From the NCBI GenBank assembly GCA_013333675.2, contig JABCOJ020000009.1, positions 204 to 64,203 of the forward strand: DNA of 64,000 nt, in the 5' to 3' direction. Positions 12,584-18,244 of the stretch are shown piece after piece. Source of the DNA: Candidatus Saccharimonadota bacterium. Lineage in GTDB: Bacteria; Patescibacteriota; Saccharimonadia; Saccharimonadales; Saccharimonadaceae. Numbering within the stretch: position 1 is the stretch's first letter; each line of letters opens with the position of its first letter. The notes below the pieces were generated by a model that saw nothing but the letters and a program-made list of their open reading frames with translations, did no database searches and was not told the DNA's origin. Position numbers and translations under genes: made by a program.

Positions 12584-12659
12584 GCCGCGATAGCTCAGTT
12601 GGTAGAGCGCATCCATGGTAAGGATGAGGTCTCGGGTTCAAGCCCCGATCGTGGCTCCA
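12584..12659 (+). tRNA. tRNA-Thr(GGT)
   Basis: Anticodon arm CATCC-ATGGTAA-GGATG; GTTCAAG T-loop; CCA. Confidence 0.96.
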
Positions 12660-12711: not shown

Positions 12712-12917
12712 AAATCAAATCTGGAACGTTTTTATGCGCTTGCTAGAACTCGTTTTAGTATAAAAACTAATCTACGGGCCGCGCCACCTGTGCGTGCGGG
12801 CTTGCATGCACGTCATCAGCCGGGGTCCCCACAAAAATTTATTTTGTGGGGTGGAGGAAAGCCCTTTTCGTATTTTTAAAATTTCCCCACCGATTTTTTA
12901 GTTGTAAAAGGTTTTCT
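12712..12917 (+). repeat. Left copy of long imperfect inverted repeat bounding the island
   Basis: Blocks AAATCAAATCTGGAACGTTTTTAT...GCTAGAAC, GCGCCACCTGTGCG and TTTTTAAAATTTCCCC...TTTTTTAGTTGTAAAAGGTTTTCT have reverse complements within 18009-18244. Confidence 0.88.
12817..12865 (+). repeat. REP-like palindromic element A, copy 1
   Basis: CCGGGGTCCCCACAAAAATTTATTTTGTGGGGTGGAGGAAAGCCCT; inverted copy at 14395-14444. Confidence 0.8.
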
Positions 12918-13062: not shown

Positions 13063-13875
13063 ATGGAGAAGGTCCTAAATTGGTATACACAGAATAAGGA
13101 TTATATTGACCTTAGCAAAGACATTGTGTTTGTCGTAGGTGCTGTTGCGACATTCGTCGGCTTCTATCAGTTCATTAAATTTCTCATAGAGAGAAAAATT
13201 CTTAATAAAAGACAAGAAATGGACAATGATGCTAGGCTATATCGAGAAATTTATTCTAAGCTAAAGGCTTATGTTGACAGCTATGAGGTAACTCAAGAAA
13301 AACTAAGAGATATAGGTATTCGGTTGCTCTATATAAAAAACTACCCCTACAAGCTAGATAACGACGGTTTTCGGCAAGAGCTTTTTTATTATGTTTTCGA
13401 CGCAGGACATAAAGCTAATGGCTATATATCTGGAAAAGGTATTTATATTTTAAACTTCTTGCGGTACTTTGATAATTGCGTTTACGTGAATCCCAAAAAT
13501 GGTAAATGGTTTATTGACGAAAAAGGACGCTCATTCAGAAAATATAAAGATCTAAAATACGAGCATTTACTAATGCGCATACCGTTTGCGAATATTTTTG
13601 GCTATGATTTTGACTCTGACTGGTCAGATAAAGGCGAACCTGTTTTCTATACTAAGTATAAGTACACAGACTGGAGGCTGTTTGCTGATGATATGGAAGC
13701 TCTCACTCTGAAGAACGGCGAATACCCGTATAATCGTTTTTCTTTACGAAAGAGCAAGAGAACCAGACGAATTCGGTCATTCTTTCGTAAATCGAAGAAT
13801 AAACTCAAAGGTTATTTATATGATAGAAAAATCAAAAAGAAACTCAAAGAAAAACACTCAACGAATCAACGATAA
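13063..13875 (+). CDS. Hypothetical protein with N-terminal TM helix
   Basis: 270-aa AT-rich ORF with GAGG RBS; hydrophobic IVFVVGAVATFVGFYQFI segment; family not recognised. Confidence 0.8.
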   Translation: MEKVLNWYTQNKDYIDLSKDIVFVVGAVATFVGFYQFIKFLIERKILNKRQEMDNDARLYREIYSKLKAYVDSYEVTQEKLRDIGIRLLYIKNYPYKLDNDGFRQELFYYVFDAGHKANGYISGKGIYILNFLRYFDNCVYVNPKNGKWFIDEKGRSFRKYKDLKYEHLLMRIPFANIFGYDFDSDWSDKGEPVFYTKYKYTDWRLFADDMEALTLKNGEYPYNRFSLRKSKRTRRIRSFFRKSKNKLKGYLYDRKIKKKLKEKHSTNQR

Positions 13876-13892: not shown

Positions 13893-14363
13893 CTAAATCT
13901 GAGTGTCCTTGCTCGGTTTCTTTTCTTTCGGCTCCTCATACATTGAGGCCAGACCTGCGATTGATATGCCGAGCGTGAAGAAAGCCACAAATGAAAACAA
14001 TAACCACGCAAGTATCGTTAATGCTATGTGAGCTGAATCCATAGCCCATAGTGCGAAAATATAGGATAAACCGCCACCGACTAATGCAACCACTATCACT
14101 GCAATCATATTTGCAATGTTCAATTTTCTATTTGTTCGACGAAGTAGTCGTTCAGCTTCTATTTTGAGTAGTTTTGCTATATCACCTCTAGCTTTGGTGG
14201 TGTCGGGTAGGCTGGCGTATATATCTGAATACTCTTTTAATCTCTGCGTCATCTTCGTACTAGCGTTCTGCTCGTTCAGAAATTTGACAAACGAAGTCAA
14301 AAACGACAATGCGGCAACGGCAATACCTGAAATAAGTGGAACGTTGTTTGCTAACCAGTCCAT
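13893..14363 (-). CDS. Hypothetical three-TM membrane protein
   Basis: 156 aa; one N-terminal and two C-terminal hydrophobic helices; TATAAT and AAGGAG upstream. Confidence 0.82.
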   Translation of the reverse strand: MDWLANNVPLISGIAVAALSFLTSFVKFLNEQNASTKMTQRLKEYSDIYASLPDTTKARGDIAKLLKIEAERLLRRTNRKLNIANMIAVIVVALVGGGLSYIFALWAMDSAHIALTILAWLLFSFVAFFTLGISIAGLASMYEEPKEKKPSKDTQI

Positions 14364-14394
14364 GTAAACTCCTTATATTATTATACTATTTTAT

Positions 14395-14444
14395 AGGGTT
14401 TTCCTCCACCCCGCAAAAATACGTTTTCGCGGAGACCCCGGCCG
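14395..14444 (-). repeat. REP-like palindromic element A, copy 2 (inverted)
   Basis: AGGGTTTTCCTCCACCCCGCAAAAATACGTTTTCGCGGAGACCCCGGCCG matches the reverse complement of 12817-12865. Confidence 0.8.
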
Positions 14445-14452
14445 GTGGGGCA

Positions 14453-14517
14453 TCTACCAAAATGGTAGGGTGACGCGGTTTTGGTCGGCATAGCCGACGC
14501 GCTACGCGCCTGCCCTG
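14453..14517 (+). repeat. Multi-hairpin repeat B, copy 2; overlaps the RT stop codon
   Basis: TCTACCAAAATGGTAGG...GTCGGCATAGCCGACGCGCTACGCGCCTGCCCTG. Confidence 0.8.
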
Positions 14518-15341
14518 ATGATACCCTTCTGTATAGCGTAAGCCTGCAACTTTATCATAAGCCGCTTATCTATCATATTTAAGTTCGCTAGCCAGCCCTC
14601 AAGGCTCGTTTCGGTCATGCGCCCGTTAGCCACATCTGAGAATATCTCTTTTCGTTTTTGTCGTGTAAGGGCTACGCCCTTATTGACAAGAAGACCACAG
14701 ATAATTTGCGGTGCATGTGCGTGCATAACTTTTATCTTTGCCTTACTGACAGCAAGTCCGGCTCTAGATAGTTGGACAGTAACCAGATTTATGACCTCTG
14801 CGGCATTAACCCGCTGACCCGATAGCGCGATGTCATCGACATAAATAGTCATATCAACACGCTCGCGTCTTAGTAGTCGATTGACTTGCAGTAGTGTATC
14901 GTTTAGACATAAGTTTGTAAGATAGCTACTTGTTGCGAAACCTTGCGGAATGCGATGTCGATAGCAGAGCTTGACTGCGAGACGTGACGCAAGGCCACTA
15001 GACAAGCCAAGTTTGTCGATGAGTGCTCGCTGCACTTCGCGCTGAGTGATAGAACCAAAACAATCGCGTATGTCAATTGCAATAACCGTACTCTTGTTGG
15101 CATGAGGGCGAGCAAAAGACACATAGCTTCGCTTTTTGACACCACCATGAATAAAAGTCGGCCAATCACTACGCTGCCGATACAGCGCACGCTTTATGCT
15201 CTTGAGCCACTTATTGAGTGCTTTGTTCGGCTTAACGACAGGGCGCGACGTACCGTCGCGCTTTGGCTCGGTAGTACAGAATACGCCCGCGCCAGCGGGG
15301 TACTCTGCCAATAGTTTTTCTAGTTCCTCAGTATTCCCCAT
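14502..15341 (-). CDS. Reverse transcriptase, retron-like, 279 aa
   Basis: PKRDG..RP...P, HGGVKKRS, IDIRDCFGSI, IPQGFATSS and catalytic YVDD; FARPH at the retron NAxxH position and ICG at the VTG position; AGGAG RBS. Confidence 0.93.
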   Translation of the reverse strand: MGNTEELEKLLAEYPAGAGVFCTTEPKRDGTSRPVVKPNKALNKWLKSIKRALYRQRSDWPTFIHGGVKKRSYVSFARPHANKSTVIAIDIRDCFGSITQREVQRALIDKLGLSSGLASRLAVKLCYRHRIPQGFATSSYLTNLCLNDTLLQVNRLLRRERVDMTIYVDDIALSGQRVNAAEVINLVTVQLSRAGLAVSKAKIKVMHAHAPQIICGLLVNKGVALTRQKRKEIFSDVANGRMTETSLEGWLANLNMIDKRLMIKLQAYAIQKGIIRAGA

Positions 15342-15523
15342 ATTCTCCTGTATGTGCCTACCTGATAGATAGAAACATAGAGGAGACCAAAGTACTTTTC
15401 GATGATTTTTACCACTGTTTGAACCAGTAGCTTGAAGCCATCACCCATACTGATGCTCATAGATGAGTACTCAGTGTGAGACTTTAGAGTCGTACGTTTA
15501 TATTTAGTACGCTGTAAGTTCAT
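15320..15523 (-). CDS. Small 67-aa protein overlapping the RT start (candidate RT partner/effector)
   Basis: GAAAGGAG RBS 5 nt before ATG 15523; MNLQRTKYKR...YRRIWGILRN; stop lies inside the RT 5' end. Confidence 0.6.
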   Translation of the reverse strand: MNLQRTKYKRTTLKSHTEYSSMSISMGDGFKLLVQTVVKIIEKYFGLLYVSIYQVGTYRRIWGILRN

Positions 15524-15535
15524 CAAAACTCCTTT

Positions 15536-15795
15536 CTCCACGCATACGCGGGGTCTCGCTTTCCGCACTGTCCAGAAAAGGTCATACAACGTACTTTGAC
15601 CTCTAGGAGCGTCTCGGTCTGAGCATAGATCTCGTAACCGGTAGGTCTCGCACCGGCGAAGCCGGGTGCAAATAGTCACACAATAATGCACTACAAGAAT
15701 GACATTAAAGGGGGGCAATTTATGGCATTGTTGCCATGTCACAGCACATTGAGCGAGTAGGAAGATGAAACGTACCGACTACCTGAGTAGTCCCA
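15536..15795 (-). ncRNA. Candidate RT-associated structured RNA
   Basis: Between an extended -10 promoter and the small ORF/RT; stem-loops at 15777-15792, 15722-15737, 15650-15669, 15579-15602 and a weaker one at 15536-15554. Confidence 0.6.
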
Positions 15796-15801
15796 CCTAC
15801 T

Positions 15802-15810
15802 ATTATAACA
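15802..15810 (-). promoter_or_regulatory. Extended -10 promoter for the ncRNA-ORF-RT unit
   Basis: Minus strand reads TGTTATAAT. Confidence 0.7.
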
Positions 15811-15831: not shown

Positions 15832-16989
15832 CTATAAATCTATAAGTTGCCGGAGGTATTCCTTGCTCTTATTCACGTCAATCTCATTGTTCGGAGTATT
15901 GATAAGAGAGTCTATAGTCTGGCCGCTAAACTGTGCCACGCCTCGCGAGTTGCGTCCAGCCCAGTGCGCAAGTAGGTGAGTTGTATCCCTGAGGTCATTT
16001 TGAAACATAGAGATAAGAATCTGTCCTACTATCTGCTTAGGCATAATGCCAACAAAATAGAACATGAAGACAGAATTTTCCAGAGACAAGAATTCTAAAA
16101 TCTTATCAATATTATATGCCTTAGGAGCAGAATTAAGTATCATCACTTTTGTCTTAATGTCTGTCGCCGTATTATAGTTATCAAAGACTTTTTCAAAATC
16201 GCCAAGCGTATTTTTTGTCCTGAAGCTTGGAATACGTTTAACTCCGGATTGAAGCGCGTCAATCAGCTCGGCTCTCAATTTCTCGTCCTCGCCAGCGATA
16301 ATGTATTCTATAACCCTACCTCGAACATTAACATTATCAATCAGACTTGCAAGTATTATTTCATTTTCGTAGCGCTTTGTTGCTTTGTCTAACTCGTCTT
16401 TCAACATTGCATACTCGGGAGATTCTATAAACGACTGTGCACGTTCTGGAGCTGAGAGTATCACCTCTTTTACTCGAGGAGATACAATATACTTAACACC
16501 GCTTGGAGATATATTATTCGTAGCCTCTACTAGTCGCGCCAGATTACCCTCAAAGCCAATTTCAGCGTGCATAGCAAACAATTCCTCAAAATTATCCGGT
16601 TCGTTCTTTATGCCATTCAGTGCATTCATAATGTCGGAGCCATTGATGCTACCTCTTATATTATCAACTCTCAATGCTTGCGATGAGTGACTAACTTTTG
16701 TGATTAGCGTAGAATTAGCGAGGAATAAATAGTTCTTACTAGGCGTATTCAGGCATACAATAAAAGGTAAGTCATCAAACTTTTGTAAATTTGAAAGTGA
16801 TATAACTGTGTTAGAGAAGTTGGTTGATTTTGAAGAGCTGAACCTTATAGCAAATGTATCTGAATAGTATACAGACCTATCTTTAGTTAGCCCAAACTTT
16901 GCCTGAACTGATTGTACTAGTTGAGCCTTGTCAGTTCTTCCGTTAAGCCCTTCTATGTAGCTAATTAGTGAGTAAACTTGCTTGTCCAT
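15832..16989 (-). CDS. Probable type II restriction endonuclease (by context)
   Basis: 385 aa overlapping the MTase stop; possible PD-(D/E)xK-like GD...TDIKTK; not confirmed. Confidence 0.6.
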   Translation of the reverse strand: MDKQVYSLISYIEGLNGRTDKAQLVQSVQAKFGLTKDRSVYYSDTFAIRFSSSKSTNFSNTVISLSNLQKFDDLPFIVCLNTPSKNYLFLANSTLITKVSHSSQALRVDNIRGSINGSDIMNALNGIKNEPDNFEELFAMHAEIGFEGNLARLVEATNNISPSGVKYIVSPRVKEVILSAPERAQSFIESPEYAMLKDELDKATKRYENEIILASLIDNVNVRGRVIEYIIAGEDEKLRAELIDALQSGVKRIPSFRTKNTLGDFEKVFDNYNTATDIKTKVMILNSAPKAYNIDKILEFLSLENSVFMFYFVGIMPKQIVGQILISMFQNDLRDTTHLLAHWAGRNSRGVAQFSGQTIDSLINTPNNEIDVNKSKEYLRQLIDL

Positions 16990-17959
16990 GAATTATCCCT
17001 GTCGAACCAGTCGTTTTCCTGAGTTTATTTTGCTCTGCTAGAGTGTTACGCTCCCAAAAAACACCATCAGTATAGCCTTGGATGCTAGTATCGCTTGCGG
17101 CATCTTCTAGTCTTTTTTCAGACCAAGCGCAGTAAGTCTTGTCTAATTCCACACCTACATAATTTCTACCTAGCTTCTTTGCTACAACCGAAGTTGTGCC
17201 GCTACCCAAAAAAGGATCAAGCACAACATTGCTCTTGTGAGAGCTAGCAAGAATGAGCTTAGCTATAAGCTTCTCTGGCTTCTGTGTTGGGTGTGCTGTA
17301 TTCTCAGGCATTGACCAGTACGGTATGGATATATCGTCCCAAAAATTTGATGGATGCGTATCGCGAAAATTACCATTTTCTGTTTCTTCCCAGTCTTTTG
17401 GCTTACCATTCACTTTATAGGGAGCAATTACCCTTTTACGCACTTTTACATCATCAACATTAAATTTCCACCGACCATTATTCGTCGCAAACCAAATATC
17501 TTCCATGGAGTTTTTCCAGTTCTCCTTTGCGCCACGACCTTTTTCTCTTTGCCATGTTATCCGATTGCGAACGTTAAGGTATTTTGGCAATATATTGCCG
17601 ATAATGATACTTGTTTTCCAGTCGCAACAGACGTAGACGCTTGCATCATCTTTGAGAAGTGGCAATACAAGGTTTAGCCATTGTTCCGTGTACTTAGCGT
17701 AGTCTCTTTCTTTCATTTCCTTAAACTTCTCGCCGTTATAATCCTTAGACAAATTGTACGGCGGGTCAACGATAAGCAGGTCGACAAATTTTTTAGGCAT
17801 ATTGACCATAATTTCGAACGTATCGCCGTTAATTGTCTTATTTAGAATATTATCTAATGATAAGTTTGTGCCGTCTATGCAACGGTCAAAATATTCTTTA
17901 CCCTCTTCGAGTGAAAAGTCTATCGTTTTATTTCTCTCTGATTTTTTAGACTTCAACAT
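16961..17959 (-). CDS. N4C/N6A DNA methyltransferase, beta class
   Basis: DPPY precedes HPTQKPEKL and VLDPFLGSGTT. Confidence 0.95.
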   Translation of the reverse strand: MLKSKKSERNKTIDFSLEEGKEYFDRCIDGTNLSLDNILNKTINGDTFEIMVNMPKKFVDLLIVDPPYNLSKDYNGEKFKEMKERDYAKYTEQWLNLVLPLLKDDASVYVCCDWKTSIIIGNILPKYLNVRNRITWQREKGRGAKENWKNSMEDIWFATNNGRWKFNVDDVKVRKRVIAPYKVNGKPKDWEETENGNFRDTHPSNFWDDISIPYWSMPENTAHPTQKPEKLIAKLILASSHKSNVVLDPFLGSGTTSVVAKKLGRNYVGVELDKTYCAWSEKRLEDAASDTSIQGYTDGVFWERNTLAEQNKLRKTTGSTGIIHGQASLLTN

Positions 17960-18008: not shown

Positions 18009-18244
18009 AGAAAACCCTTTACAACTAAAAAATAAAAAATCAGCGGGGAAATTTTAAAAAATATTAAAATGGTTTTCTGGTGGGTTGCGTGCGGACTTGC
18101 CCGCACAGGTGGCGCGACTCGGAAGCTATCGCTTATGCCTCGCAGCTTGGGTTAAATTATTTTCAGACCTCCAGCGTGCTTACTTGGCTCGCCAGCGCTG
18201 AAATGGGTTCTAGCGAAAGTATAAAAACGCTCCAGATTTGATTT
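18009..18244 (-). repeat. Right copy of long imperfect inverted repeat bounding the island
   Basis: Reverse complement aligns in three blocks with 12712-12917; also a perfect 13-bp inverted repeat at 18004-18016/18071-18083. Confidence 0.88.

Follow-up and report, generated by a model that had tools for sequence, protein, structure and literature searches.

Type VI retrons are the closest described relatives of the locus reported here, and two of them have been studied. According to the accessible part of its description (10.1101/2025.10.22.683967), Retron-Vpa2 makes a hybrid RNA of ~470 nt with 7-nt repeats and an 86-nt msDNA, whose 23-nt 5' hairpin is needed for toxin translation; its HTH protein represses reverse transcription and HTH mutation is toxic, and how the msDNA activates toxin translation is left open in that paper. 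For Retron-Sen3 (type VI, cl2075), the available portion of the text (10.64898/2026.04.27.721009) presents the HTH protein as an antitoxin needed for viability and RecBCD as the sensed host component. As far as these two texts extend, loss of the HTH is toxic in both studied type VI systems. The partly available survey of Mestre 2020 describes a branching G as the primer of retron reverse transcription; in ~22% of its type VI entries no HTH was detected, so that RTs like the one below may already be listed there without comment.

We analyzed a 64,000-nt stretch of DNA (the window) from a Candidatus Saccharimonadota bacterium, in which an original prediction had placed a compact retron-like unit on the minus strand at 15810-14502. 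These borders were upheld, and similarity to the DNA of genome G677 spans window positions 15810-14524 and ends there, in agreement with them. The predicted extended -10 promoter (TG-N-TATAAT, 15802-15810) is present; inspected by eye, the -10 hexamer lies 4-8 nt upstream of the RNA start in all 32 homologous sequences with an intact 5' end, and TG-N in 28 of the 32. A sigma-70 scan, which requires a -35 box, did not output this promoter. Further downstream, the 67-aa ORF (15523-15320) with its strong RBS (AAAGGAG, 5 nt ahead of ATG) and the overlapping 279-aa RT (15341-14502; overlap 22 nt; YVDD at residues 167-170) were found as first described. We conclude that the unit is a real, conserved and mobile two-gene retron of 1.3 kb.

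The RT, which is short at its N-terminus, belongs to Pfam RVT_1, and its top PADLOC profile is RT_VI (1.6e-46), followed by RT_III-A (3e-38). Retron profiles scored 4e-26 against 5e-9 for group II introns, 4e-5 for Drt3a and 1e-4 for Drt2, being ahead by 17-22 orders of magnitude. The structure model (pLDDT 92.5) has retron Ec86 as its best fold match, and ranks 18 and above in the fold search are all retrons. Assignments as a DRT/UG, DGR or group II intron RT were rejected, since retron profiles and folds rank first. A frameshift or fusion of the small ORF with the RT was also rejected, as the RT frame in the window has several stops upstream and the frame of the small ORF is conserved; an open RT frame upstream was seen in cluster P0007 alone. 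The altered signature residues singled out in the original prediction (FARPH at 76-80 for NAxxH, ICG at 214-216 for VTG) are present. Among 20 aligned family RTs, YVDD or YIDD occurs in 20, the His of NAxxH is kept in 20 and the Gly of VTG in 19, with Asn replaced by Phe, Tyr or His and Thr mostly by Cys throughout; both motifs also vary in other RT_VI-like proteins. These two kept residues are the most conserved ones in the accessible text of Mestre 2020. The substitutions are family traits that keep His and Gly, and no mark of a different enzyme class.

A homologue search yielded 55 RT clusters (90% identity) at E 0.001 among 1787 candidates, of which 53 have at least 40% identity; most are full length with YxDD intact. 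Searched against 1.84 billion representatives, family members score down to ~190 bits, and the proteins that follow start at 165. In a scan that took in 41 of 150 listed proteins, RT_VI was the best profile for the window RT, for 9/9 family members and for 30/32 of the nearest outside proteins; family scores against RT_VI are low (129-167 bits). The phylogeny called for in the original prediction gave a family clade with support 96-98, nested among HTH-bearing RTs with support 80-84 in a tree of 68 rows and placed on an unsupported backbone in a second tree of 54 rows that left out 22 rows; both were quick searches, with reference rows typed by gene neighbours and PADLOC instead of published lists and no published reference RT among them. 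The sister of the family, P0070, is a 271-aa RT with an equally short N-terminus and FAKSH at the NAxxH position. Family RTs mostly have 26-38 residues ahead of the conserved Arg33, compared with 50-66 in seven HTH-bearing RTs, and are 20-30 residues shorter at the N-terminus than the HTH-bearing relatives compared; they start at helix 2 of these HTH-bearing RTs, the first helix being missing.

The suggested ~260-nt structured RNA exists as a 271-nt non-coding stretch (15794-15524), but it is not notably stable when folded alone (z -0.94; 42/200 shuffles as good). Folded together with the small ORF, it reaches z -3.14 (1/100 shuffles), and values below -2 were obtained in 19/20 homologues (12 shuffles each). 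The structured element is a hybrid RNA of ~450 nt (15345-15794, ends inferred) that comprises leader, msr, msd, small ORF and a 3' hairpin. For covariation analysis we used 20 sequences of <95% identity, drawn from 32, in an unfitted MAFFT alignment. A 52-pair structure is 90.3% paired (0/500 shuffles), and 27 of its pairs change on both sides against 15.1 in shuffled alignments; slid controls are 28-41% paired, a comparison that favours the structure because it was drawn by hand from the same sequences. The eight longest stems of an unguided scan include the 5' hairpin, the msr hairpin, IR1:IR2, and the pairings of the 5' strand with codons 4-6 and of the template loop with codons 9-11.

The 5' part of this RNA has the predicted anatomy of an msr-msd. 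The 18-nt leader forms a hairpin (15777-15792) in which 6/6 pairs change on both sides. The putative priming stem joins 15740-15748 to 15564-15572; seven of its eight pairs change on both sides, the cognate pairing is better in 164/170 comparisons, and 12 coincident changes map to the tree, where random variable column pairs average 0.68 each. The predicted branching G (15740) is invariant in 20/20 sequences and faces an invariant G (15572). G opposite G is also found in the priming stem of Ec86/Eco1. Among solved structures, this type II-A retron is the closest in both sequence and fold; it differs in its 22% identity, its separate ncRNA and enzyme effector, and its msDNA, which is an antitoxin. 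The msr hairpin (15722-15737) is 100% paired, and 2/5 of its pairs change on both sides. From the priming geometry, the msd template would occupy 15573-15711, giving an msDNA that is predicted to start at 15573, to be between 79 nt (to repeat 1) and ~139 nt long, and to carry a 22-nt 5' hairpin; the stem of the first template hairpin as drawn is 73% paired. A direct repeat is present in 19/20 sequences, with copy 1 inside the msd (15644-15651) and copy 2 at 15552-15559; the copies covary (144/146 cognate), and repeat 1 tracks repeat 2 though the template around it is variable. In locus L034, repeat 1 and the bulk of the template centre have been lost (template ~93 nt), and all the locks described next are retained.

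Three helices, which we call locks, connect the 5' part with the beginning of the small ORF. Lock 1 pairs the 5' strand (15759-15775) with the RBS, the start codon and codons 4-6 (15513-15507). It is 97.9% paired, with 2/7 pairs changing on both sides and cognate pairing better in 129/166 (anti-SD) and 56/118 (motif) comparisons; being nearly invariant, it is weakly informative on covariation. Lock 2 is a pseudoknot between the loop of the first template hairpin (15588-15594) and codons 9-11 (15498-15492). It is 98.6% paired, 4/7 pairs change on both sides, the cognate pairing is better in 129/134, and nine coincident changes occurred on the tree, against one and three for swapped pairings. 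It survives amino-acid changes (KHT in L009, KRV in L010, TRT in L027), and by these measures lock 2 is the best-supported of the long-range helices. Lock 3 joins repeat 2 to codons 14-15 (15482-15478) and is 89% paired, with cognate scores of 99/106 and 86/93 in two tests. In addition, IR1 (15600-15605) is complementary to IR2 (15383-15378) inside the small ORF; this pairing (89.6%; four pairs change on both sides vs 1.0 shuffled; one coincident change) is conserved with little covariation. Since it and the priming stem cross each other, there are probably two competing folds. Finally, a hairpin that begins in codons 47-49 covers the RT RBS (15345-15386) and is found in 20/20 sequences despite their divergence, with z below -2 in 19/20.

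Cognate scores come from related, hence non-independent, sequences. Controls gave 36-40%, and one unrelated control reached 96/138 (70%), so that scores below ~80% are weak. Swapped lock pairings were rejected (49/104 and 81/139), as was pairing of the msr 3' end with the repeat copies (33/128 and 47/149), although that helix (helix 5, 79.8%) is counted within the 52 pairs. The msDNA loop and the 5' strand gave no specific covariation (65/124). When everything 5' of the priming arm was removed in silico, predicted RBS accessibility rose in 17/20 sequences and fell from 0.46 to 0.36 in the window RNA, in a model without pseudoknots. A model of the 5' RNA found no canonical type VI locus; its match in L056 (18 bits, E 0.11), a locus of another Patescibacteria genome, shares the msr hairpin motif.

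Compared with the accessible description of Vpa2, the window unit has a hybrid RNA of similar size containing msr-msd and a small ORF, a short direct repeat in the msd and again ahead of the RBS, a hairpin at the msDNA 5' end, a long-range repeat to the 3' end of the RNA, and a small protein with a hydrophobic C-terminal helix. Unlike Vpa2, it lacks an HTH gene, carries the RT RBS in place of that of the HTH, and has a template loop paired in cis to the coding sequence. With Sen3, again as far as its text is available, it shares the 18-nt 5' stem-loop before the 5' repeat, an RBS buried in the basal stem, an IR1 at the 3' terminus of the template arm that pairs with an IR2 at the small-ORF end, and a variable template centre; it differs in that neither an HTH nor a host RecC was found, the small protein has no SP_VI match, and IR2 lies within the ORF, not after it. 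The repeats are spaced at -128/-36 in the window versus -107/-47 (L043, L045) and -129/-45 (L048) in HTH-bearing loci. This template/leader spacing is clear in L043, L045, L047, L048, L050, L055 and L057, equivocal in L051 and not seen in L037, and it also occurs in the HTH-less loci L056, L060 and L061. In L043, L045, L047, L050 and L051, a leader segment at -73 to -111 is complementary to ORF positions +19 to +25. In these HTH-bearing type VI retrons, the segment is possibly the equivalent of lock 2, as judged from complementary stretches of 7-12 nt, a length that arises by chance. Because the RNA and small-ORF features of type VI are present, the HTH is absent and the tree backbone is weak, we class the unit as a variant resembling type VI and not as one of its standard members. 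The suggestion of a possibly undescribed subtype holds insofar as no described type has it as a standard member, and has to be qualified by its closeness to type VI; in the same way, the PADLOC check points to RT_VI, but the HTH gene of that type is missing. Type V retrons (RT plus cold-shock domain) share RT clade 3 with this unit and differ from it in that no cold-shock gene follows the RT here. On a Hafnia plasmid (NZ_CP083739.1; L044:1324-1506), a type V-like RT with a cold-shock gene is directly preceded by an unannotated ORF of 60 aa that has a strong RBS, with a 9-nt repeat at -98/-37; judging from these features, hybrid RNAs that conceal a small toxin may exist in type V as well.

We propose, with a probability of roughly 0.6, that this HTH-less two-gene type VI-like retron is an RNA-controlled abortive-infection switch, in which an RNA-only translational lock is opened by reverse transcription and RT synthesis is coupled to toxin translation. 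Sequence comparison covers the gene order, the HTH absence and the helices; the msDNA, the order of opening, the translational coupling, the toxicity, the trigger and the phage defence are inferred. Both the small-protein gene and the msr-msd would be on a single transcript. In the resting state, the 5' strand, the template loop and repeat 2 would hold the small-ORF RBS and codons 1-15, and the RT RBS would be sequestered in its hairpin, so that little toxin and little RT would be made. The RT would prime at G15740 and copy from 15573. The hairpin with the lock 2 loop would be copied first, so that copying together with RNase H would free codons 9-11 of this lock; the hosts G677 and G663 encode RNase HI. 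With sequences that can pair to repeat 2 and, in the majority of members, to the 5' strand, the msDNA could displace locks 3 and 1. Ribosomes on the small ORF would then unwind the RT hairpin and yield more RT, a positive feedback; the switch would be set off by a phage factor that stabilizes the msDNA or disables the host nuclease, with cell arrest by the small protein as the outcome. The roles of the msDNA as activator, of the small protein as toxin and of phage recombination proteins as possible triggers are taken from analogy with Vpa2. The anatomy of the present locus alone suggests the opening of lock 2 in cis and the coupling of RT synthesis to small-ORF translation, which could stand in for the HTH brake on reverse transcription.

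No Cro/C1-type HTH gene precedes the RT in any of 34 loci with readable upstream DNA; the small ORF there ends at -38 to +33 nt relative to the start of the RT match, which leaves no room for such a gene. The RT RBS occupies the position of the HTH RBS in type VI, and the RT lacks its first helix; both would be explained if a single deletion had run from the start of the HTH into the RT. As HTH loss is toxic in both studied systems, something must replace it here, and the RNA fold alone may keep the toxin off. A protein-level restraint of the kind described for Sen3 offers another answer: the small protein would always be made and be neutralized by the RT-RNA complex or by a host HTH acting in trans, with the helices as a scaffold. 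In favour of it, Sen3 combines a similar RNA framework with post-translational control, according to its available text (10.64898/2026.04.27.721009), and generic HTH genes exist in the two near-complete host genomes, G677 and G663. These generic proteins reach 45-46 bits, compared with 73 for G402's cognate HTH and 43.5 for one in the retron-free genome G001; no cognate-grade HTH was found in G677 or G663. A profile of ten type VI HTHs had no match in the 64-kb window and matched in 5/36 loci, many with short flanks, at 32-45 bits, in scattered positions and on either strand. Also, three helices meet at the translation start. We consider such protein-level restraint unlikely.

HTH-less pairs of a small ORF and an RT were also observed in other Patescibacteria (L041, L056 in G573, L059/L060, L061 and L062); their RTs are full length and their small ORFs (27-88 aa) are unrelated. 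They fall outside the window family in the second tree, and on this grouping HTH loss is probably recurrent in Patescibacteria. A further type VI-like locus, L038 (G305), has an HTH-RT fusion (406 aa) behind a 66-aa small ORF.

The original prediction saw no fused effector domain; an effector is not lacking, being most likely the small ORF, which is itself part of the RNA. The ORF named in the proposed check for a conserved upstream RNA or ORF is present: with its RBS it lies 181-196 nt upstream of the RT in 34 of 36 family loci (40-100% RT identity; the other two have just 1 and 162 upstream bases). The protein (67 aa, core 50 aa) has a profile matched by 75 clusters. It is modelled with low confidence (pTM 0.33) as a beta-hairpin (residues 2-25, turn at residue 13) followed by a long helix. 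No match was found in Pfam, NCBIfam, PADLOC, PDB sequences or ESM Atlas; fold searches returned generic helices only (best Z 4.4; best E 0.56), and profile comparisons with the small ORFs of L043, L044, L056 and L061 were not significant. The canonical small protein of L043 is unrelated in sequence to that of the window, which differs in its predicted beta-hairpin start. None of 21 family members matches the SP_VI profiles, which match the control L048 and fail with four other canonical small proteins too. The presumed toxin function rests on position and amphipathy, in both of which the ORF resembles type VI small-protein toxins. With this resemblance and its presence in 34 of 36 loci, the ORF is not incidental.

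The small ORF could also encode a leader peptide or an RT/RNA cofactor that tunes RT synthesis, with the effector elsewhere or nonexistent. Its conservation largely overlaps the RNA helices (third codon positions in the paired parts score 0.72 and 0.86), C-terminal variation gives it lengths of 52 to 72 aa, and its translation would open the RT hairpin, all of which suits that function. Against it, the middle, less paired codons retain an amphipathic helix in 21/21 members (hydrophobic moment 0.56-0.94), core indels keep the frame, Pro13 is found in 49/50 aligned homologues, and no neighbour gene other than the small ORF is common to the 36 family loci compared. A role confined to tuning RT synthesis thus appears quite improbable to us. 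The one exception at residue 13 is the copy in the window (Leu13, codon 15485-15487), in contrast to the near-identical loci L001 and L011, which have Pro13. The Leu codon retains a U-G pair in a coding-region stem, so that the protein may be weakened without harm to the RNA; alternatively, the change may be a sequence variant.

The unit lies in a 5.6-kb low-GC insert downstream of tRNA-Thr (12584-12659). The insert also holds a type II R-M pair (restriction enzyme, REase_II 2.3e-142, and N6/N4 methylase; 15832-17959, minus strand), a membrane gene of 156 aa with several helices and a promoter-like site of its own (13893-14363, minus) and a 270-aa gene of no family (13063-13875, plus). The earlier reading of an RT-ncRNA unit of retron type in a defence island is upheld. 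As partners of the RT, the neighbours were rejected: the 156-aa gene occurs in 1/36 loci, the 270-aa gene in 1/36 and the R-M pair in 2-3/36. The first two are possibly separate defence genes of the island, and the membrane gene, which the cloning span proposed earlier (13893-15810) takes in, lies outside the unit, its one occurrence being in the identical island. In the nearest genome, G001, both flanks are found at 93-94% with ~0.6 kb between them and the island is absent. Diverged inverted repeats bound the island (12712-12917 and 18009-18244), with a partial third copy after the RT (14395-14447). Related elements occur several times in G001, G677 and G694 and downstream of the RT in L005, L012, L014, L015 and L023. 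No integrase or duplicated tRNA end was seen at the island, and Rfam reported only tRNAs.

A related RT was found in 10 genome loci, all of Saccharibacteria, one of them identical over 274 residues. Among 401 Saccharimonadia genomes, 11 have an RT match, two of them at family level, and the small protein occurs in just these two, adjacent to the RT gene. A phylum-wide sample of 401 genomes gave four weak RT matches and no family member, and viral contigs contained no relative of the RT or of P0070 and no msr motif. This patchy distribution, together with the differing sites of the unit in the window and G677, would suit a selfish toxin-antitoxin module that stabilizes mobile islands without blocking phages. 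We regard such an addiction role as very unlikely: the studied type VI relatives defend against phage, according to the accessible texts (10.1101/2025.10.22.683967; 10.64898/2026.04.27.721009), R-M genes flank several copies, and a toxin that requires activation would fit sensing better than post-segregational killing. Finally, decay of a type VI retron, or an RT of a non-retron class (DRT/UG, DGR or group II intron), is hardly credible, since the lost HTH and first RT helix and the replaced Asn and Thr are set against the mostly full-length RT clusters with YxDD, the 75 small-protein clusters, the compensatory RNA changes and the lead of retron profiles and folds. RecC was found in none of four hosts, so the RecBCD trigger of Sen3 could not transfer unchanged.

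The full-text literature searched, which leaves most subscription papers outside its scope, yielded two mechanistic preprints on type VI retrons and nothing that describes one without the HTH or one from Saccharibacteria. The accessible part of the Sen3 text (10.64898/2026.04.27.721009) has no mention of Saccharibacteria, Patescibacteria or 'lacking HTH', that of the SPIRE survey none of Patescibacteria, and that of PMC11032452 names retrons in passing only. More tentatively, and on balance doubtfully, the unit can be seen as the smallest retron immune switch so far, a toxin mRNA locked by its own template and unlocked by copying, which raises its own RT without a protein regulator or antitoxin; HTH loss would then have been repeated in Patescibacteria, and the template-loop lock may be the general, so far unrecognised core shared by type VI retrons of the Vpa2 kind (and by type V).

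Since both studied type VI retrons need the HTH against self-killing, a natural lineage without it isolates the RNA part of the switch, and covariation pinpoints the helices, the branch G and the template start for mutation. The very short retron RT could serve as an RT-gated translation switch, and for Saccharibacteria, hosts without RecBCD, the unit is a candidate anti-phage system.
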